Origin: an uncultured Spirochaetaceae bacterium
GTDB lineage: Bacteria > Spirochaetota > Spirochaetia > DSM-27196 > SLST01
Length of the DNA stretch: 64,000 bases
Reading direction: 5' to 3'
Assembly: GCA_964537725.1 (NCBI GenBank)
Contig: CAZICD010000004.1
Coordinates: forward strand, 23,903 to 87,902
Shown piece by piece: positions 3,918 through 14,510 of the stretch. Below the pieces are notes generated by a model. The model was given only the letters and a program-made list of their open reading frames with translations. It ran no database searches and was not told the DNA's origin. Within the stretch, counting starts at the first letter, position 1. Every line of letters starts with the position of its first letter. A program made the position numbers and the translations under genes.

Positions 3918-4880
3918 CTACCCGTGGACCACCGCCCGGTTCCGGCCCGCCTCCTTCGCCCGGTAGAGCGCCTGGTCGGCAGCTTCACGGATCGCCTCGA
4001 GCGAACGTCCGTGCCGCGGAAACTCGGCCACCCCCTGGCTGGTCGTGACCTTCACGATGCCCGAGGGGCCCGGCACGTCCAGCTCCTCCACGGCCGTGCG
4101 AATCGTCTCGGCGATCGCGAGCGCCTCCTCGGCGCGGCGGCCCGGGAGGATGATCGTGAACTCGTCACCCCCGTAGCGCGCGGCGATATCGCGCTCGCCA
4201 ACCGCGTCGCGGACCGACGGCGCGACGGTCGCGATCAGCTCGTCGCCGAACGCCTGACCGTACTCGTCGTTGACCTCGTGGAACCGGTCCAGGTCCATCA
4301 TGATCAGGCTGAACACGCCGTTCTTCACGCGCGCTTCGGCCACCTGCTGCTCGAGCGCGCCGTCCAGATAGCGACGGTTGTACAGCCCGGTGAGGTCGTC
4401 GGTGATCGCGCGTCGCCGTGCGCCCTCGCCCCACTGCACGAGATCGGAGAGGAACGAGCTCGTCGCGTTGAGCCGGTTCGTGGTGATCGCGACCATGCGA
4501 TACATGATCTTGATCGCGGTCCCGGGGTGCTGGTCCATGAGCGCGAAGAAGTCGGTCTTTCGGAGTCGATAGAGCCGGCCGCCGTCGACCATGACGCAGG
4601 TCGCAGACCGCGGCGCGTCTTCGAAGATCGCCATCTCGCCGAAGAAGTCGCCCGGACCGAGCTCGGCCACGTCGACCGACGAGCCGTCCTGCGTCGCCAC
4701 CCGGATCGCGACGCGTCCGTCGCTGACGATGTAGAGGTCCCTGCCCTCTTCGCCCTGGTTGAACACGGCGTCGTCGGCGCTGCACTCGGTCTCTTCGAGA
4801 TAGCCCTGCAGGATCTCGAGCTCGTCGTCCTGGAGGTCGCCGAGTATGTCGACGCGCCGCAGAAGGCCCGCAGAGATCAT
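3918..4880 (-). CDS. Diguanylate cyclase with N-terminal cyclic-nucleotide-binding domain (cNMP-GGDEF)
   Basis: CAP-family cNMP-binding signature GDFFGEMAIF..PRSAT. The GGDEF domain has an intact YGGDEF motif (4158..4175), plus DLDRFHEVNDEYG and ALYRAKEAGRNR. Confidence 0.85.
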   Translation of the reverse strand: MISAGLLRRVDILGDLQDDELEILQGYLEETECSADDAVFNQGEEGRDLYIVSDGRVAIRVATQDGSSVDVAELGPGDFFGEMAIFEDAPRSATCVMVDGGRLYRLRKTDFFALMDQHPGTAIKIMYRMVAITTNRLNATSSFLSDLVQWGEGARRRAITDDLTGLYNRRYLDGALEQQVAEARVKNGVFSLIMMDLDRFHEVNDEYGQAFGDELIATVAPSVRDAVGERDIAARYGGDEFTIILPGRRAEEALAIAETIRTAVEELDVPGPSGIVKVTTSQGVAEFPRHGRSLEAIREAADQALYRAKEAGRNRAVVHG

Positions 4881-5860
4881 GGTCGGCCTCCGTCGTCGTG
4901 CGGCGTGAGCACCCGATCGCCGCCCTCGTCGCGGGCCTGGAAGACGAGCTGGTGGGCGTGAGTCACGAGCTCTTCTCCGCTCGACCCGTGGATCGGGTAG
5001 ACGGTCAGTCCGACGCTGAAGGTGAGCGGCACCTTCCGGTCGCCGGTGACCGGGGAGAGGTCGGCCTGAGCCATTCGCTCGCGGATCTCGCGCGCCTTCG
5101 CGAGGATCGTGTCCTTCGGGGTGGACGGAAGGACGACCGCGAATTCGTTACCGCGAAACCGCACCGCGATACCCGAATCGCCGAGGATGCCCTTGAGCTG
5201 ATTCGCGAGGATGCGCAACACGTGGTCGCCCACCTCGTGGCCGAACGTGTCGTTGATGAGCTTGAAGTTGTCGGGTTTGACGATGAGTATGCCGGCCTCG
5301 CCCCTGTTGCGCGCGAGCAGACCGCCGAGCTCGTCGTCCAGGTAGCTCTTCGAGTACAGCCCGGTGAGCTTGTCGCCGAAGACCTGCTGCCGTAATTCCT
5401 GCACCCAGCTCGAGTTCTCGCTGACGAGCCGGTTCGTGGAACGGATCCGGCCGGCCACGATGACGAGGAACTGGTGGAGCATCCGCGCGAAGAGCTGCGG
5501 GTGGTCCATCATCAGCTCGTCGAACGAGGTCCCGCGGCTCGGGAAGATGAGAACCCGACTCGCTCCCTCGCTGACCGCGCTCGCCGAGCGCACGGCCTCG
5601 CTCAGGAAGTCCTGCTCGCCGAAGCTCTCGCCGGCGACGAACCGCGCGAGATCGATCTCCCGGCCGTCCTCGCCGCGCTTGACGATGCGAACCTCGCCGC
5701 GCTCGATGACGAACAGCTCGCGCTCGGCCGTGCCCGCCCGGAAGATGTACTCCCCCGGATCGAAGTCGTGGAAGCTCGCGTGCTCGGCGAGCACGCTCAT
5801 GTCCTGCTGGCTGAGCTGCGAGAAGAGGTCGACCGATGACAGAAGATCGAGTTTCTCCAT
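4877..5860 (-). CDS. cNMP-binding domain protein with degenerate GGDEF domain (RGNEF)
   Basis: cNMP-binding signature GESFGEQDF..VRSAS. The GGDEF-fold has KPDNFKLINDTFGHEVGD and FQARDEGGDR, but the active-site motif reads RGNEF (5141..5155). ATGA overlap with the downstream paralog. Confidence 0.85.
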   Translation of the reverse strand: MEKLDLLSSVDLFSQLSQQDMSVLAEHASFHDFDPGEYIFRAGTAERELFVIERGEVRIVKRGEDGREIDLARFVAGESFGEQDFLSEAVRSASAVSEGASRVLIFPSRGTSFDELMMDHPQLFARMLHQFLVIVAGRIRSTNRLVSENSSWVQELRQQVFGDKLTGLYSKSYLDDELGGLLARNRGEAGILIVKPDNFKLINDTFGHEVGDHVLRILANQLKGILGDSGIAVRFRGNEFAVVLPSTPKDTILAKAREIRERMAQADLSPVTGDRKVPLTFSVGLTVYPIHGSSGEELVTHAHQLVFQARDEGGDRVLTPHDDGGRP

Positions 5861-7987: not shown

Positions 7988-8902
7988 ATGCATGACCTGA
8001 TCATCATCGGTGCCGGACCCGCCGGATTGGCCGCAGCGCTCTACGCGACGAAGAAGCGCCTCGACTACCTCGTGCTCAGCAGGGATCTGGGCGGCAAGAG
8101 CAACTACTCGGTGGATCTGCCGGAAACCGAGCGCGGCGCCACCATCCGGGCCGACGAGCTGGTCACGGTCTACCGCAGCACGCTCGAGTACCTGCGTCAC
8201 TCGTACCGCCTCGTCGGCGTCACCGGCCTCAGACACGACGACGACGGATTCACCGCCGAGCTCGAGGACGGCTCGACCGAGTCGGCGCGCGCGGTCATCG
8301 TGTCCACGGGCACGCACGTCCGCAAGCTCGACGTACCGGGCGAGCTCACCTTCCTGTCGCGCGGGCTCGGCTACTCATCGATCAGCTATTCGCATCTGTT
8401 CCGCGGCAAGCGCGTGTTCATCGCCGGGAACACCGATCGCGCCGTGAACTCGGCGATCGAGCTGTCGATCCACGCGGACGCGGTGACGCTCGCGCTGCTG
8501 CCCGGCGGGGCATGCGATTCGACGCTCGTCGAACGCGCTCGCGGGCTCGACCGCGTCGACGTGATCGAGAACGCGACGATCGACGAGTTCCGCGGCGACG
8601 AGTACGCTCGCGAGGCGGTCGTCTCGAGCGACGGCGCAAGCCGCACGATCGAGGCCGACGGTTTCTTCGTGGAGCCGGAGCCGGTGCCGAACGCGGATTT
8701 CGTCTTCGACGAAGTCGGTCGCGACAAGGACGGTTACATCGTCGTAGACGGTACGAACGGCACGAACGTTCGCGGCCTCTACGCGGCCGGAGACGTGACG
8801 GGCAACGGCTACGAGCAGATCCTCGTCTCGCTCGGCGAGGGAGCAAAGGCGGCGCTCTCCGCCTACCGCTACCTGCTGAGCACCGGGCTCGAGGGCCGCT
8901 GA
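7988..8902 (+). CDS. Thioredoxin-reductase-like FAD-dependent oxidoreductase lacking the CxxC redox centre
   Basis: N-terminal FAD motif IIIGAGPAGLAAALYA and C-terminal GLYAAGDV..G motif. SSISYS sits where TrxB/AhpF have CATCDG. The second dinucleotide motif is degraded (FIAGNTDRAVNSA). Confidence 0.8.
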   Translation: MHDLIIIGAGPAGLAAALYATKKRLDYLVLSRDLGGKSNYSVDLPETERGATIRADELVTVYRSTLEYLRHSYRLVGVTGLRHDDDGFTAELEDGSTESARAVIVSTGTHVRKLDVPGELTFLSRGLGYSSISYSHLFRGKRVFIAGNTDRAVNSAIELSIHADAVTLALLPGGACDSTLVERARGLDRVDVIENATIDEFRGDEYAREAVVSSDGASRTIEADGFFVEPEPVPNADFVFDEVGRDKDGYIVVDGTNGTNVRGLYAAGDVTGNGYEQILVSLGEGAKAALSAYRYLLSTGLEGR

Positions 8903-8966: not shown

Positions 8967-8995
8967 TTGACAGCAGCGCCTCAGGGACCTAGAAT
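8967..8995 (+). promoter_or_regulatory. Near-consensus sigma70 promoter (TTGACA - 17 nt - TAGAAT) of the hydrogenase operon
   Basis: TTGACA at 8967..8972, a 17-nt spacer and TAGAAT at 8990..8995, within the only AT-rich stretch of this region. A ~70-nt leader with palindromes TATCGATA (9008..9015) and CAACCGGTTG (9038..9047) precedes the GGAGGAGG RBS. Confidence 0.5.
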
Positions 8996-9068
8996 TCGCG
9001 CTGTAATTATCGATATAAGAAGTGCCATTTTGACCAGCAACCGGTTGGAACGGCCCGGAGGAGGTCCC

Positions 9069-9584
9069 ATGGTGAACGAGCACGTACGCACGCACGTACC
9101 GGAAGTGGAGCGTGACGAGTCGCTGATCGCTCTCGACCGCTACATCGACGAGCACATGGACATGGAGGGCAATCTGATTCCCGTCCTCCAGTACGCGCAG
9201 CAGGTCTTCGGCTACCTTCCCAAGCCGGTGCTGAAGCACATCAGCGTCCGGCTCGACATTCCGTACAGCGAAGTGTCCGGCGTGGTCACCTTCTACTCGT
9301 TCTTCTCGACGGTGCCTCGCGGCGAGCACATCGTCCGGGTCTGCCTGGGGACGGCGTGCTACGTCCGCGGCGGCAAGGAGGTCCTCGCCGCCTTCCGCGA
9401 CGAGCTCGGCATCGAGGTTGGTGAGACGACCGACGACCGTCTCTTCTCCCTGGAGGTGGGCCGATGCTTCGGCGCGTGCGGACTCGCGCCGGTCGTGATG
9501 ATCGACGACGAGGTCCACCAGCGGGTCAAACCGGCGAAGGTCCGCGAGCTGCTCGCCGGATACCGAAGGGAGGCAGCCGAATGA
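9069..9584 (+). CDS. hydC: [FeFe]-hydrogenase HydC subunit (NuoE-like thioredoxin-fold [2Fe-2S] protein)
   Basis: NuoE/HydC motifs VCLGTACYVRGG and GRCFGACGLAPV. Start at 9069 after GGAGGAGG. The stop overlaps the hydB start (ATGA at 9581). Confidence 0.9.
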   Translation: MVNEHVRTHVPEVERDESLIALDRYIDEHMDMEGNLIPVLQYAQQVFGYLPKPVLKHISVRLDIPYSEVSGVVTFYSFFSTVPRGEHIVRVCLGTACYVRGGKEVLAAFRDELGIEVGETTDDRLFSLEVGRCFGACGLAPVVMIDDEVHQRVKPAKVRELLAGYRREAAE

Positions 9585-12500
9585 ACCGCATCGCCACGAG
9601 GAAGGATCTCGACCGTGTCGCCGCCGAACGAACGGCAGCCGCCGAGAAGCGGCAGCTGCGGTTCCACGTGTGCATGGGCGCGAGCTGCATCGCATCGGGC
9701 GCGAGCGAGGTACTCGAGGCGCTCGAGGCCGAGCTCGCCGGGCGCAACGGCACCGTCGAAGTGAGCGGAACCGGCTGCATGGGGCCGTGCGTCCGTGGTC
9801 CCGTCATCCGGGTCCTCCCGGCCGGCGACACGTTCACCGGCGTCCGGGCGGAAGATATCCCGGGAATCGTCGCGCGAAGCTTCGGCGAAACCGAGGCAGA
9901 CGCCGCGGCGCCGGATGCAACCCTGGGAGACTTCTTCGCGCCGCAACAGCGGATCGTCCTGCGCAACTGCGGCTCGATAGATCCCGCCGCGATCGAGGAC
10001 GCGATCGCCCGCGGCGCGTACGCCGCGCTCGAGCGCGTAATCAGCGGCATGTCTCCCGAGGACATCGTCGCGACGATGAAGGAGTCGGGACTCCGCGGTC
10101 GGGGCGGCGCGGGCTTCCCCACCTGGCTGAAATGGGACCTCACCCGGAAGGCGGAGGGCGAGGTCAAGTTCGTCCTCTGCAACGCGGACGAGGGCGACCC
10201 CGGCGCGTTCATGGACCGCAGCGTCCTCGAGGGCGACCCCCACTCGCTCATCGAAGGCATGGCGATCGCCGCGCGCTGCGTGGGGGCGAGCCAGGGCGTG
10301 GTCTACGTCCGAGCCGAGTACCCGCTCGCGATCGAGCGGCTCGAGCACGCGCTCGGGCAGGCGCGCGAGGCCGGGCTTCTCGGCGAGTCGATCTTCGGCA
10401 GCGACTTCTCATTCGACCTGGAGATCCGGCGCGGGTCGGGAGCCTTCGTCTGCGGCGAGGAGACCGCGCTCATCAATTCGATCGAGGGCAAGCGCGGCGA
10501 GCCGCGGCCGCGGCCGCCCTTCCCGGCGCAGAAGGGGCTCTGGGGCAAGCCGAGCCTGCTCAACAACGTGGAGACGTACGCGAACGTCGCGGCGATCTTC
10601 GCGAACGGCGCACCGTGGTTCGCCGCGCACGGGACACCGGAGAGCCGCGGCACGAAGGTCTTCGCGCTCGCCGGGGCGATCGAGAACACGGGGCTGGTCG
10701 AAGTACCGATCGGCACGACGCTGGGCGAGCTCGTCTACGACATAGGAGGGGGCGTCAAAGGAGGTCGCCCCTTCAAGGCCGCGCAGATCGGCGGCCCGTC
10801 GGGCGGCTGCGTCCCGCGAGATCACCTCGACGTGCCCCTCGACTACGAGTCGCTGCAGGAGCTCGGCGCGATCATGGGCTCCGGCGGGCTCATCGTCATG
10901 GACGACGAGACGTGCATGGTCGACGTCGCGCGCTTCTTCCTCGAGTTCGTCCAGGAAGAGTCGTGCGGCAAGTGCGTGCCGTGCCGCGTGGGCACCAAGC
11001 GGATGCTCGAGATCCTCGACCGGATCACCTCCGGCGAGGGCGAGATGGAGGACATCGACCGGCTCGTGGAGCTCGGCAATCAGATCAAGGAGACCGCGCT
11101 CTGCGGCCTCGGGCAGACCGCGCCCAACCCGGTGCTCTCGACGATACGGCACTTCCGCGACGAGTACGAAGAGCACATCCGCGACCGTCACTGCGCCGCG
11201 GGCGTCTGCCCGGGGCTCGTCCGCGCGCCGTGCGAGAGCGCGTGTCCTGCCGGCGTGGACGTACCCGGCTTCGTGGCGCTCGTCGGCGAGCGTCGGTACG
11301 CCGAGGCGCTCGCGCTGCACCGCAACCGCAACCCGTTCGCGGCCGTCTGCGCGCGCGTCTGTTTCCACACGTGCGAGGACCACTGCCGACGCGCCTCGCT
11401 CGACGACCCCGTCGCCATCCGGGGTATCAAACGGTTCATGGTCGACCAGGAGGTCGTCATCCAGCTCCCCACGGTTCGCGAGAGCGAGGAGAACGCCGCG
11501 CGCAAGGTCGCGATCGTGGGTGCGGGTCCCGCCGGCCTCTCGTGCGCCTACTTCCTCGCACGGCTCGGCTACCGGCCGACGGTCTTCGAGGGCGAATCGC
11601 GGCCGGGCGGCATGCTCGTGCAGACGATTCCCGCCTACCGGCTCCCCCGAGAGACCCTCGCGCGGGAGATCCGGATGATCGAACAGCTCGGAGTCGATAT
11701 CCGCACCGAGCAGAAGCTCGGCCGCGACGTGAGCGTGGCGGGTCTGCGCGAGGAGGGGTACGAGGCGCTCTTCCTCGGACTGGGCGCGCCGCAGTGCATG
11801 GGCATGGGAATCGACGGCGAGGACGCGAAGGGCGTCGTGCGCGCGGGGGATTTCCTGCGTCAGTACAACATCCGCGGCTCGGTGCCGGTCGGCAAGGACG
11901 TCGTCGTCGTGGGCGGCGGTAACGCAGCGGTGGACGCCGCGCGAACCGCACTGCGCCTGGGGGCGGAGAGCGTCACGATCATCTACCGGCGCACGCGCGA
12001 GCAGATGCCCGCCTACGCGGAGGAGATCGAGGAGGCGCTGCTCGAGGGAGTCGAGCTGCGCACGCTGACGCAGCCGGTGGAAGTAACGACCGACCGAACC
12101 GGCGCCGCGAAGGCGCTCAGGTGCGAGTCGATGACGCTCGGTGGCTTCGACCGCAGCGGCCGGCGGCGCCCGAGGCGCTCGGGCGAGGAGAGTTTCCTGC
12201 TGCCGGCCGACCAGGTGATCGTCGCGATCGGCCAGCGGCTGGACGAGTCGGCGCTCGGCGAGCTCGCCGAGCTCGAGTTCACGGACGCCGGTTTCATCGC
12301 CGCCGACCCGCAGACCGGCCAGACGAGCGAGCCGTGGATCTTCGCAGGAGGCGACGCGGCGAGCGGGCCCGAATCGGTCGTCACCGCGATCGCCGCCGGA
12401 GAACGAGCGGCCATCGGCATCAACCTCCTGCTCACCGGACGCGCAGACGCGTTCTGGCGCGAGCCGCAGGAGGTCGACGTCGCCTACGACCCGGACGCCG

Positions 12501-12703
12501 AACCGGCGCCCTACCACCGCGAGCCGTACAGCACGATTCCGGTCGAGCGACGGCGGCACAACTTCGACGAGGTCGAACAACCGTGGTGCGAGGCGGTGGC
12601 GATGCGTCAGTCGCACCGGTGCCTGCGCTGCGATTACGGGAAGCAGATTGCGAAGCCCGTCGAACCGACCAGCGTGACGAAGAAGGAGGAGCTCCATGCC
12701 TGA
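9581..12703 (+). CDS. hydB: [FeFe]-hydrogenase HydB flavoprotein subunit (NuoF-like) fused to a GltD/NfnB-like NADPH-dependent FAD oxidoreductase module (1040 aa)
   Basis: N-terminal [2Fe-2S] region (CMGASC..GCMGPC). NuoF motifs GLRGRGGAGFP, CNADEGDPGAF, ESCGKCVPCR and ALCGLGQTAPNP. From about 11192 it shows GltD-type features: CAAGVCPG..CESACPAGVDVP, VAIVGAGPAGLSCAY, VVVVGGGNAAVDAART..IIYRR and FAGGDAA. Confidence 0.9.
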   Translation: MNRIATRKDLDRVAAERTAAAEKRQLRFHVCMGASCIASGASEVLEALEAELAGRNGTVEVSGTGCMGPCVRGPVIRVLPAGDTFTGVRAEDIPGIVARSFGETEADAAAPDATLGDFFAPQQRIVLRNCGSIDPAAIEDAIARGAYAALERVISGMSPEDIVATMKESGLRGRGGAGFPTWLKWDLTRKAEGEVKFVLCNADEGDPGAFMDRSVLEGDPHSLIEGMAIAARCVGASQGVVYVRAEYPLAIERLEHALGQAREAGLLGESIFGSDFSFDLEIRRGSGAFVCGEETALINSIEGKRGEPRPRPPFPAQKGLWGKPSLLNNVETYANVAAIFANGAPWFAAHGTPESRGTKVFALAGAIENTGLVEVPIGTTLGELVYDIGGGVKGGRPFKAAQIGGPSGGCVPRDHLDVPLDYESLQELGAIMGSGGLIVMDDETCMVDVARFFLEFVQEESCGKCVPCRVGTKRMLEILDRITSGEGEMEDIDRLVELGNQIKETALCGLGQTAPNPVLSTIRHFRDEYEEHIRDRHCAAGVCPGLVRAPCESACPAGVDVPGFVALVGERRYAEALALHRNRNPFAAVCARVCFHTCEDHCRRASLDDPVAIRGIKRFMVDQEVVIQLPTVRESEENAARKVAIVGAGPAGLSCAYFLARLGYRPTVFEGESRPGGMLVQTIPAYRLPRETLAREIRMIEQLGVDIRTEQKLGRDVSVAGLREEGYEALFLGLGAPQCMGMGIDGEDAKGVVRAGDFLRQYNIRGSVPVGKDVVVVGGGNAAVDAARTALRLGAESVTIIYRRTREQMPAYAEEIEEALLEGVELRTLTQPVEVTTDRTGAAKALRCESMTLGGFDRSGRRRPRRSGEESFLLPADQVIVAIGQRLDESALGELAELEFTDAGFIAADPQTGQTSEPWIFAGGDAASGPESVVTAIAAGERAAIGINLLLTGRADAFWREPQEVDVAYDPDAEPAPYHREPYSTIPVERRRHNFDEVEQPWCEAVAMRQSHRCLRCDYGKQIAKPVEPTSVTKKEELHA

Positions 12704-14510
12704 GATCACGATCAACAACCAGCAGCTCGTCGTGGAGCCGGGCTCCACGATCCTCGAGGCCGCCCAGGCGGCAGGCATTCACATCCCGACGCTCTGTCAC
12801 CTCGAGCATCACGCGGCGCAGGGGGCGTGCCGGGTCTGCGTCGTGGAGGTCGAGGGCGCGAAGACGCTGCTCGCATCGTGCGCAACCCCGGTTCGCGACG
12901 GCATGGTCGTGCGTACCAACACGAAGCGCGTCCGCGCGGCGCGGCGCACCGTCGTCGATCTCCTGCTGAGCGAGCACGAGGGCAACTGCCAGTACTGCGA
13001 CCGCAGCATGGACTGCGAGCTCCGTGAGCTCGCGTACACCACCGGTATCGGGGAGCCGTTCTACCCGGGCGAGCGACCGCCGGTCGTCCTCGACCGAAGC
13101 ACGCCCGCGCTCGTCCGCGACAGCGGAAAGTGCATCAAGTGTCGACGGTGCGTGACCGCGTGCAACGAGGTCCAGCAGGTCGGCGCGCTCTTCCCGCAGT
13201 ACCGCGGTTACGGGACGCTCATCGCCCCCGCGTTCGCGGGCGACCTCGACGATGTGGTCTGCGTCCAGTGCGGCCAGTGCGCCGCCGTCTGCCCGGTCGG
13301 CGCCATCTCCGAGCGCGATCACCTGGAAGCCGTGTGGAACGCGCTCGAGGATCCCGACCGGCACGTCGTCGTGCAGACCGCACCGGCGGTCCGCGCCGCG
13401 CTCGGCGAGTGCTTCGACTACGAGCCGGGAACGCTCGTCACCGGCAAGATGATCACCGCGCTGCGCGAGCTCGGCTTCGACGCCGTCTTCGACACCAACT
13501 TCACCGCCGACCTCACGATCATGGAGGAGGGCACCGAGCTGCTGACGCGGCTGAAGCACGCGATCGTGGGCTCGGATGCCGCGGAAGACGCAGCCGGCGC
13601 GGCGCACGGTCACGCGGCCCCCGGTCCGCTGCCGCAGTTCACGAGCTGCTCGCCCGGCTGGATCAAGTACGCCGAGCACTTCTACCCCGAGTTCCTGGCG
13701 AACGTCTCCACGTGCAAGTCGCCGCAGCAGATGTTCGGCGCGCTCGCGAAGACCTGGTACGCCGAGCAGGCGGGGGTCGATCCGGAGAAGATGACCGTCG
13801 TGTCGATCATGCCGTGCACGGCCAAGAAGTTCGAGGCCCAACGCGACGAGATGTCGGCGAGCGGTTACCAGGACGTCGACTACGTGCTCACGACGCGCGA
13901 GCTGGGTCGGATGATCCGCTCCGCGGGAATCGACTTCGACTCGCTGGACGATGGAACCATGGACTCGCCGCTGGGCTTCTCGAGCGGGGCGGCCGACATC
14001 TTCGCGAATACCGGCGGCGTGATGGAGGCAGCGCTGCGCACCGCATGGGAGATCGTCACCGGCCGGGAGCTCCCGGCCGACGATCTTCACGTCGCTCCGG
14101 TGGCCGGACTCGAAGGCATCAAGGAGGCATCGCTCGTCGTCACCGATCCGCTGCCGGAGTGGTCGTTCCTCGACGAGGTCGAGCTGCACGTCGCCGTCGC
14201 CCACGGCCTGGGCAACACGCGAAAGCTGCTCGACGAGATCAAATCCGGGCGGCGAACGTACCACTTCGTCGAGATCATGACCTGCCCGGGCGGGTGCATC
14301 GGCGGGGGTGGCCAGCCCCGGATGACGACCGACGCGGTGCGACGAGCACGGATCGAAGCGATCTACCGCGAGGACGAGGGCAAGCCCGTGCGCAAGTCGC
14401 ATCTCAACCCGGCAATCGTCGAACTGTACGAACGGTACCTCGGCGAGCCGCTCGGCGATCGCTCTCACCGCCTGCTGCACACGCTCTACGAGCAGCGACT
14501 GCGGGTGTAG
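12696..14510 (+). CDS. hydA: [FeFe]-hydrogenase catalytic subunit HydA (M3 architecture, HydABC/group A3-like)
   Basis: Plant-type [2Fe-2S] N-terminus, a His-ligated cluster (HEGNCQYCDRSMDC), and two ferredoxin motifs (CIKCRRCVTAC, CVQCGQCAAVCP). H-cluster motifs are TSCSPGW (variant of TSCCPxW), MPCTAKKFE and EIMTCPGGCIGGGGQP. Confidence 0.9.
   Translation: MPEITINNQQLVVEPGSTILEAAQAAGIHIPTLCHLEHHAAQGACRVCVVEVEGAKTLLASCATPVRDGMVVRTNTKRVRAARRTVVDLLLSEHEGNCQYCDRSMDCELRELAYTTGIGEPFYPGERPPVVLDRSTPALVRDSGKCIKCRRCVTACNEVQQVGALFPQYRGYGTLIAPAFAGDLDDVVCVQCGQCAAVCPVGAISERDHLEAVWNALEDPDRHVVVQTAPAVRAALGECFDYEPGTLVTGKMITALRELGFDAVFDTNFTADLTIMEEGTELLTRLKHAIVGSDAAEDAAGAAHGHAAPGPLPQFTSCSPGWIKYAEHFYPEFLANVSTCKSPQQMFGALAKTWYAEQAGVDPEKMTVVSIMPCTAKKFEAQRDEMSASGYQDVDYVLTTRELGRMIRSAGIDFDSLDDGTMDSPLGFSSGAADIFANTGGVMEAALRTAWEIVTGRELPADDLHVAPVAGLEGIKEASLVVTDPLPEWSFLDEVELHVAVAHGLGNTRKLLDEIKSGRRTYHFVEIMTCPGGCIGGGGQPRMTTDAVRRARIEAIYREDEGKPVRKSHLNPAIVELYERYLGEPLGDRSHRLLHTLYEQRLRV

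Follow-up and report, generated by a model that had tools for sequence, protein, structure and literature searches.

Serine at a [4Fe-4S]-ligand position of the H-cluster in an M3-type [FeFe]-hydrogenase from an uncultured Spirochaetaceae bacterium

The window analysed here is a stretch of 64,000 nucleotides from an uncultured Spirochaetaceae bacterium (assembly GCA_964537725.1, contig CAZICD010000004.1, positions 23,903 to 87,902 of the forward strand). It carries a tightly packed operon of the order hydC-hydB-hydA, in which stop and start codons overlap, the middle gene is a hydB::gltD fusion and hydA, which encodes the catalytic subunit of an M3-type [FeFe]-hydrogenase, comes last (Table 1). 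The L1 motif of the HydA H-cluster departs from the canonical TSCCPxW: it reads TSCSPGW, with the proton-relay cysteine kept and the cysteine that ligates the [4Fe-4S] subcluster (hereafter [4Fe-4S]H) replaced by a serine, Ser319.

HydA belongs to the [FeFe]-hydrogenases. The protein contains the Pfam domains Fe_hyd_lg_C (PF02906, 6.7e-93) and Fe_hyd_SSU (PF02256, 1.1e-21), preceded by an N-terminal F-domain in which Pfam recognizes Fer2_4 (2Fe-2S), NADH-G_4Fe-4S_3 and two ferredoxin-type 4Fe-4S motifs (Fer4). It scores 861.4 bits against the NCBIfam model NF040763, 'NADH-dependent [FeFe] hydrogenase, group A6' (curated cutoff 765), and 505 bits against TIGR02512 (cutoff 406). Its best phmmer matches in the PDB are the HydA1 subunits of the HydABC complexes of Thermoanaerobacter kivui and Acetobacterium woodii. 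The AlphaFold2 (AF2) model (mean predicted local distance difference test (pLDDT) 91.5, predicted template modelling score (pTM) 0.91) superposes in Foldseek with template modelling (TM) scores of 0.90 on T. kivui HydA (8a6t_A), 0.89 on A. woodii HydA (7q4w_A) and 0.88 on the Clostridium pasteurianum enzyme CpI. The M3-type F-domain, composed of 2Fe-2S, His-ligated 4Fe-4S and 2x4Fe-4S parts, and the adjacent genes for NuoE- and NuoF-like subunits place HydA in the M3 class, and a Pfam scan of the protein detected no PAS or other sensory domain of the kind that would assign it to the HydS-like sensory groups C/D. By its sequence, HydA is thus the catalytic subunit of a group A [FeFe]-hydrogenase; the TSCSPGW motif is no bar to this membership, being a documented natural alternative.

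The position of the serine was established by two alignments, one obtained with phmmer against the PDB and the other with MAFFT from 267 H-domains. Between the L1 motif and the KSPQQ segment, both align HydA without gaps to CpI, T. kivui HydA and A. woodii HydA, three solved enzymes, which excludes a register shift that would restore four cysteine ligands. Ser319 falls on CpI C300 and on Ser301 of A. woodii and Cys318 falls on the CpI relay residue C299, which is the arrangement of the natural Ser-type H-cluster. A preliminary description of the locus had placed both residues in this way; it had also pointed to an additional cysteine next to the conserved lysine (STCKSPQQ), which is indeed present but is residue 340, not 341.

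The same description had considered the remaining H-cluster motifs and the MEEGTEL relay region to be intact, and the alignments agree. HydA matches both the L2 (MPCxxKxxE) and the L3 (ExMxCxxGCxxGGGQP) consensus, and so retains the three other cysteine ligands and the lysine. The proton-transfer pathway is likewise complete: C318, E278, S338, E281 and R285 correspond to CpI C299, E279, S319, E282 and R286, respectively. The segment between R285 and the L1 motif has 30 residues in HydA compared to 10 in CpI and in the T. kivui and A. woodii enzymes, which makes this loop 20 residues longer than that of A. woodii HydA1; most close homologues have 16 residues here, and values from 16 to 50 occur among relatives. 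It contains a lineage-specific expansion, and the AF2 confidence drops below a pLDDT of 50 at residues 298-305. Note that a published sentence describes Cys354 of T. kivui (Cys356 of A. woodii) as binding the di-iron site too (Katsyv 2023, PMC10021017), and that this residue aligns here to the L2 cysteine (CpI C355). The bridging cysteine of the algal enzyme CrHydA1 is C366 (Kertess 2017, PMC5855289), by numbering alone the second L3 cysteine (CpI C503, that is, C506 in A. woodii and C500 in T. kivui). The numbering in the former sentence may be a slip.

Table 1. Positions in the window of the hydrogenase genes, of the HydA motifs and residues discussed in the text, and of neighbouring genes
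Feature	Positions	Strand	Basis or remark
hydC, NuoE/HoxE-like thioredoxin-like [2Fe-2S] subunit	8967..9584	+	Pfam, NCBIfam; start codon uncertain
hydB::gltD fusion	9578..12703	+	Pfam, NCBIfam; start taken at internal ATG (MNRIATRK)
hydA, M3-type [FeFe]-hydrogenase catalytic subunit	12696..14510	+	604 aa; Pfam, NCBIfam, PDB matches
EEGTELLTR; proton-transfer residues E278, E281, R285 (CpI E279, E282, R286)	13524..13550	+	alignment
Ala/Gly/Asp/His-rich lineage-specific loop expansion between R285 and L1	13560..13619	+	HydA residues ~289-308
L1 motif TSCSPGW (T316-S317-C318-S319-P320-G321-W322)	13641..13661	+	codons acg agc tgc tcg ccc ggc tgg, in hydA frame
C318 codon tgc (CpI C299, proton-relay cysteine)	13647..13649	+	alignment
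S319 codon tcg (CpI C300 / T. kivui C299 / A. woodii S301, [4Fe-4S]H ligand position)	13650..13652	+	alignment
C340 codon tgc, Cys preceding conserved Lys in STCKSPQQ (CpI A321 / A. woodii C322 / CrHydA1 C136)	13713..13715	+	alignment
L2 motif MPCTAKKFE; C374 (CpI C355, ligand), K377 (CpI K358)	13809..13835	+	alignment
L3 motif EIMTCPGGCIGGGGQP; C530 (CpI C499) and C534 (CpI C503), ligands	14271..14318	+	alignment
Thioredoxin-reductase-like flavoprotein gene	7988..8902	+	Pyr_redox_2, 304 aa
cNMP-binding + GGDEF gene	3918..4880	-	
cNMP-binding + GGDEF gene, paralogue of the preceding	4877..5860	-	

The serine is strongly conserved among the relatives of HydA. Identical TSCSPGW and STCKSPQ segments occur in the ten other members of its 90%-identity cluster, which come from separate NCBI, ENA and JGI assemblies; the motif xSCSPGW is found in 118 of the 120 closest homologues (67-100% identity) and at 79 of 80 loci from species-representative genomes. 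The latter cover at least ten phyla, with taxa that include Spirochaetota, Omnitrophota, Bacteroidota, Planctomycetota, Lentisphaerota, Myxococcota and Desulfobacterota as well as Thermoleophilia, Fibrobacterota, Nitrospirales and Opitutaceae. The codons used for the serine at the 79 Ser loci are TCT (33), TCG (26), TCC (10) and TCA (10): since all four TCN codons are used while the amino acid stays fixed, the pattern indicates that the serine at the ligand position is under purifying selection. That TSCSP could stem from a sequencing or assembly error, or from a decaying pseudogene, is consequently a most improbable explanation, for which only the deviation from the textbook motif speaks. Indeed, the motif recurs in the ten independent assemblies and across the species genomes, the open reading frame is intact with a GC content at third codon positions of 0.90, typical for coding sequence, and every other catalytic residue is in place. 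The preliminary description, which regarded an error as unlikely and proposed to look for the motif in orthologues from related genomes, was right on the first count, and the orthologues do share it.

To survey the H-domain family more broadly, we used a sample of 134 representatives of 50%-identity clusters, of which 19 are Ser-type and 115 Cys-type; the serine therefore occurs in 14% of them, and in 13 of the 65 M3-type representatives (20%, against 52 with Cys). All full-length Ser-type representatives have the M3 architecture. The relay cysteine is present in 19/19 Ser-type and 113/115 Cys-type representatives, and the equivalents of the proton-pathway residues E279, S319, E282 and R286 are kept in 18-19 of the 19 Ser-type ones. 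A rough neighbour-joining tree intermixes the Ser and Cys states and requires at least 18 parsimony changes, a count likely inflated by tree error; two TSCCP forms (P0082 and P0102) nest among the close TSCSP relatives of HydA. On this tree a single origin of the Ser type is rejected, and the exchange between Ser and Cys seems to have occurred repeatedly in this part of group A. The alignment columns that best separate the two types are positions 328, 355, 381 and 529, which may merely mirror phylogeny. As a separate observation, one predicted protein of 4122 aa (P0131) contains seven separate H-domain matches (1973 bits); it represents either several hydrogenases fused in tandem or an artefact of assembly or gene calling.

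The serine has been described before. A passage of Kertess 2017 (PMC5855289), citing Winkler, Esselborn & Happe 2013, gives its frequency at this position as about 20% of [FeFe]-hydrogenase sequences, and TSCSPGW has been mentioned for Melainabacteria (Di Rienzi et al. 2013). In the cryo-electron microscopy (cryo-EM) structure of A. woodii HydABC, the place that a cysteine ligand of the H-cluster [4Fe-4S] holds in T. kivui (Cys299) is taken by Ser301, which is modelled as the ligand; the complex is an active bidirectional hydrogenase with a normal Fourier-transform infrared (FTIR) signature, in which the Hred, HoxH and Hhyd states were seen (Katsyv 2023, PMC10021017). The replacement of Cys by Ser at the H-cluster ligand position is thus a natural variant that is common, conserved and already in the literature, of which the window gene is one more member. 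The rarity that the preliminary description had implied for TSCSP does not hold, and an outcome of this kind is one that the description itself had named as refuting it.

Among characterized enzymes, A. woodii HydA1 (HydABC(D); PDB 7Q4V/7Q4W/8A5E; PMC10021017) is the closest parallel to HydA in the residues around the serine. The two proteins are about 46-51% identical (51% over the H-domain; phmmer E=3e-170), and share the M3 architecture, TSCSPGW, the cysteine before the lysine (C322 in A. woodii, C340 here), intact L2 and L3 motifs, the proton pathway, and NuoE- and NuoF-like partners. T. kivui HydA1 (8A6T) and CpI (e.g. 4XDC) have the same fold, F-domain organization, L2 and L3 motifs, relay cysteine and proton pathway, but differ from HydA by a canonical TSCCPxW motif with its cysteine ligand (C299 in T. 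kivui, C300 in CpI) and by an alanine at the position of C340; CpI, moreover, is a monomeric, ferredoxin-dependent enzyme. The third point of comparison is an engineered one: in the C115S variant of CrHydA1, serine replaces the cysteine of this very ligand position, and the algal protein, too, has a cysteine before the lysine (C136).

Taken together, these data lead us to propose, at a probability of about 0.7, that the Oγ of Ser319 ligates [4Fe-4S]H in a functional M3-type, group A6 hydrogenase of the HydABC type, the Fe-O bond being the part that we infer. The side-chain oxygen of Ser319 would take the place of the Cys thiolate as fourth ligand of the subcluster, next to C374, C530 and C534, and C318 would still relay protons to the azadithiolate bridge, feeding the E278-S338-E281-R285 pathway. 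The Ser form would then be a recurrent, selectively maintained alternative to Cys in this branch of group A, the same as that of active A. woodii HydA1, and the serine would tune the cluster rather than disable it. From Fe-S chemistry, an oxygen ligand is predicted to lower the potential somewhat. The placement of the serine at the cluster, a normal FTIR signature and activity are carried over from the A. woodii homologue, and would be expected of HydA by analogy.

Several points weigh against this proposal. No hydE, hydF or hydG maturase gene was found when the 64-kb window was searched, although such genes are commonly encoded away from the hydrogenase genes. The A. woodii model reportedly derives from cryo-EM at ~3 Å or slightly worse, a resolution that cannot prove an O-Fe bond. 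One T. kivui HydABC map is at 3.49 Å (Katsyv 2023, PMC10021017). As of 2017, natural serine coordination of [4Fe-4S] clusters was unknown, and CrHydA1 C115S loses most of its [4Fe-4S] cluster, does not take up the 2Fe site and is devoid of all activity (Kertess 2017, PMC5855289). The loss suffered by the algal C115S variant implies that serine ligation is not tolerated everywhere and must depend on the scaffold context. Since the natural Ser-types, by contrast, are conserved and that of A. woodii is active, their scaffolds must be able to cope with the shorter oxygen ligand.

The shorter reach of serine (by roughly 0.7 Å compared to cysteine, as estimated from standard bond lengths) and the inability of CrHydA1 C115S to hold its cluster (PMC5855289) would also fit a cluster bound by three cysteines only, in which Ser319 merely donates a hydrogen bond and the unique iron carries water or hydroxide or is incompletely ligated by the protein; a bonded and a non-bonded serine are not distinguishable at cryo-EM resolution. 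We nevertheless consider such a cluster unlikely. The residue is always Ser, and never Ala, Gly or Thr, in the 79 species, despite synonymous codon turnover, and in the 19 Ser-type representatives, a strict retention that points to a need for the hydroxyl itself; the FTIR signature of the A. woodii enzyme is canonical (PMC10021017); and CrHydA1 variants with Ser or Asp at other ligand positions took up the 2Fe site while the Ala variants did not, from which it appears that an oxygen donor can ligate (PMC5855289). Another arrangement would have C318 itself ligate the cluster, as was speculated for Cys114 in the C115A variant of CrHydA1 (Kertess 2017, PMC5855289). Such a shift would leave the enzyme without a relay cysteine, hence slow, sensory or impaired, and it is very hard to reconcile with what we observed: the proton pathway, pointless without a relay, is conserved in nearly all Ser-type representatives, the serine is under purifying selection in the species genomes, and HydA combines the M3 architecture and the hydC-hydB-hydA context with the absence of PAS or sensory domains in the Pfam scan. 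Moreover, A. woodii HydABC is active and bidirectional with the same motif (PMC10021017). The conservation of the relay cysteine together with the whole pathway thus makes a sensory or impaired enzyme unlikely.

The fourth ligand could also be a thiolate from elsewhere, and C340 is the obvious candidate, Ser319 then being a mere spacer or hydrogen-bond donor. This cysteine lies in the SxxKSPQ segment, which lines the H-cluster pocket in known structures; it accompanies the serine in 124 of 127 close homologues and at all 79 Ser-type species loci, and the double-Cys forms (TSCCP with CKSPQ, as in P0082, P0102 and CrHydA1) could be evolutionary intermediates of such a swap. Across the cluster representatives, however, the two positions do not covary: cysteine is the majority residue at the C340 position in either group, with 12/19 Ser-type and 63/115 Cys-type representatives (Fisher p=0.62), and Ala or Thr is found instead in 7 of the 19 Ser-type clusters. 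Every alignment column was tested for enrichment of cysteine in the Ser group, and the best of the others reached 4/19 versus 4/115. A compensatory cysteine, at C340 or at another column, was rejected on these grounds. In addition, CrHydA1 possesses the equivalent C136 and yet loses its cluster upon C115S substitution, and only the adjacent C114 was considered as a possible substitute by the authors of that study (PMC5855289); in A. woodii, the authors of the structure assign Ser301, not Cys322, as the ligand (PMC10021017). We therefore regard the ligand swap as quite unlikely. Of the three options that the preliminary description had left side by side, ligation by the serine is the one that the data support; the takeover by the neighbouring cysteine is not supported, and the sensory or impaired enzyme with a vacant relay is contradicted.

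The operon in which this hydrogenase is encoded differs from that of the characterized HydABC complexes in its middle gene. HydB::GltD comprises, in this order, an N-terminal 2Fe-2S domain, a NuoF-like FMN (flavin mononucleotide)/NADH module, a 4Fe-4S domain (NADH_4Fe-4S) and a GltD/NfnB-like module (Fer4_20 followed by an FAD (flavin adenine dinucleotide)/NAD(P)H Pyr_redox_2 domain). The last module stands in place of the C-terminal ferredoxin-like 2x[4Fe-4S] domain of A. woodii HydB, which has been proposed as the ferredoxin site of bifurcating HydABC (Katsyv 2023, PMC10021017); lacking that domain, the window complex may work differently from its A. woodii and T. kivui counterparts. Furthermore, no HydD-like gene was identified for the window system. 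At least 120 full-length homologues of the fusion exist, annotated no more specifically than as 'NuoF' or 'FAD-dependent oxidoreductase'. In 67 of 68 related loci, spread over at least ten phyla, the fusion gene directly precedes hydA in the order hydC-hydB::gltD-hydA.

A NuoE/NuoF core joined to a GltD/NfnB-like FAD-NADPH module is also found in the Stn/Nfn-Bfu transhydrogenases (Kremp 2020, PMC7483475; PMC10482914; PMC12018979), and the HydB subunit of archaeal hybrid hydrogenases carries a glutamate-synthase domain (Greening 2024, PMC11216029). Stn, however, is not a hydrogenase, and its GltD is fused to a NuoG-like subunit without an H-cluster; in the window, HydB is the fusion partner of GltD, and the operon encodes a complete HydA as well. 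The parallel bears on the operon and not on TSCSP. By analogy, this operon type may couple H2 to both NAD(H) and NADP(H) and be related to the Stn/Nfn-Bfu enzymes; we found no biochemical characterization of the hydC-hydB::gltD-hydA complex in the literature. A broader scheme can be drawn in which C340 is the true ligand, mis-assigned in the cryo-EM model, and the O-ligated or swapped [4Fe-4S]H is a redox tuning of the hydC-hydB::gltD-hydA clade, across its at least ten phyla, matched to a HydABC-type hydrogenase coupled to NADPH/NADH rather than to ferredoxin. We hold this combination to be rather improbable.

As to the surroundings of the operon, hydC is preceded, at a distance of 65 nt, by a thioredoxin-reductase-like flavoprotein gene on the same strand, which may share a transcript with the hydrogenase genes. 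Further upstream lie two adjacent paralogous genes on the opposite strand, each encoding cyclic nucleoside monophosphate (cNMP)-binding and GGDEF diguanylate cyclase domains, and hydA is followed by a GH13 gene, also on the opposite strand. Four related loci initially seemed to contain an insertion of ~800 nt in hydA, which proved to be a separate downstream gene: in these loci, all from Spirochaetaceae metagenome-assembled genomes, a very distant H-domain-like gene is found about 200-300 nt downstream of hydA (L048, 4565..4993; L051, 2860..3429; L071, 5130..5603; L073, 8059..8595), with 26-29% identity to HydA residues ~220-458 and no counterpart in the window.

Since roughly a fifth of M3-type sequences and one solved, active enzyme have the serine, the TSCSPGW motif of the window matters little as a discovery. 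Its practical value is that motif screens demanding TSCCPxW would wrongly flag or drop a large functional clade. Any effect of the oxygen ligand, or possibly of C340, on the H-cluster, be it on the potential of [4Fe-4S]H or on catalytic bias, would concern the whole class rather than the window alone. For follow-up, the conserved hydB::gltD operon type is a better candidate than the TSCSP motif.

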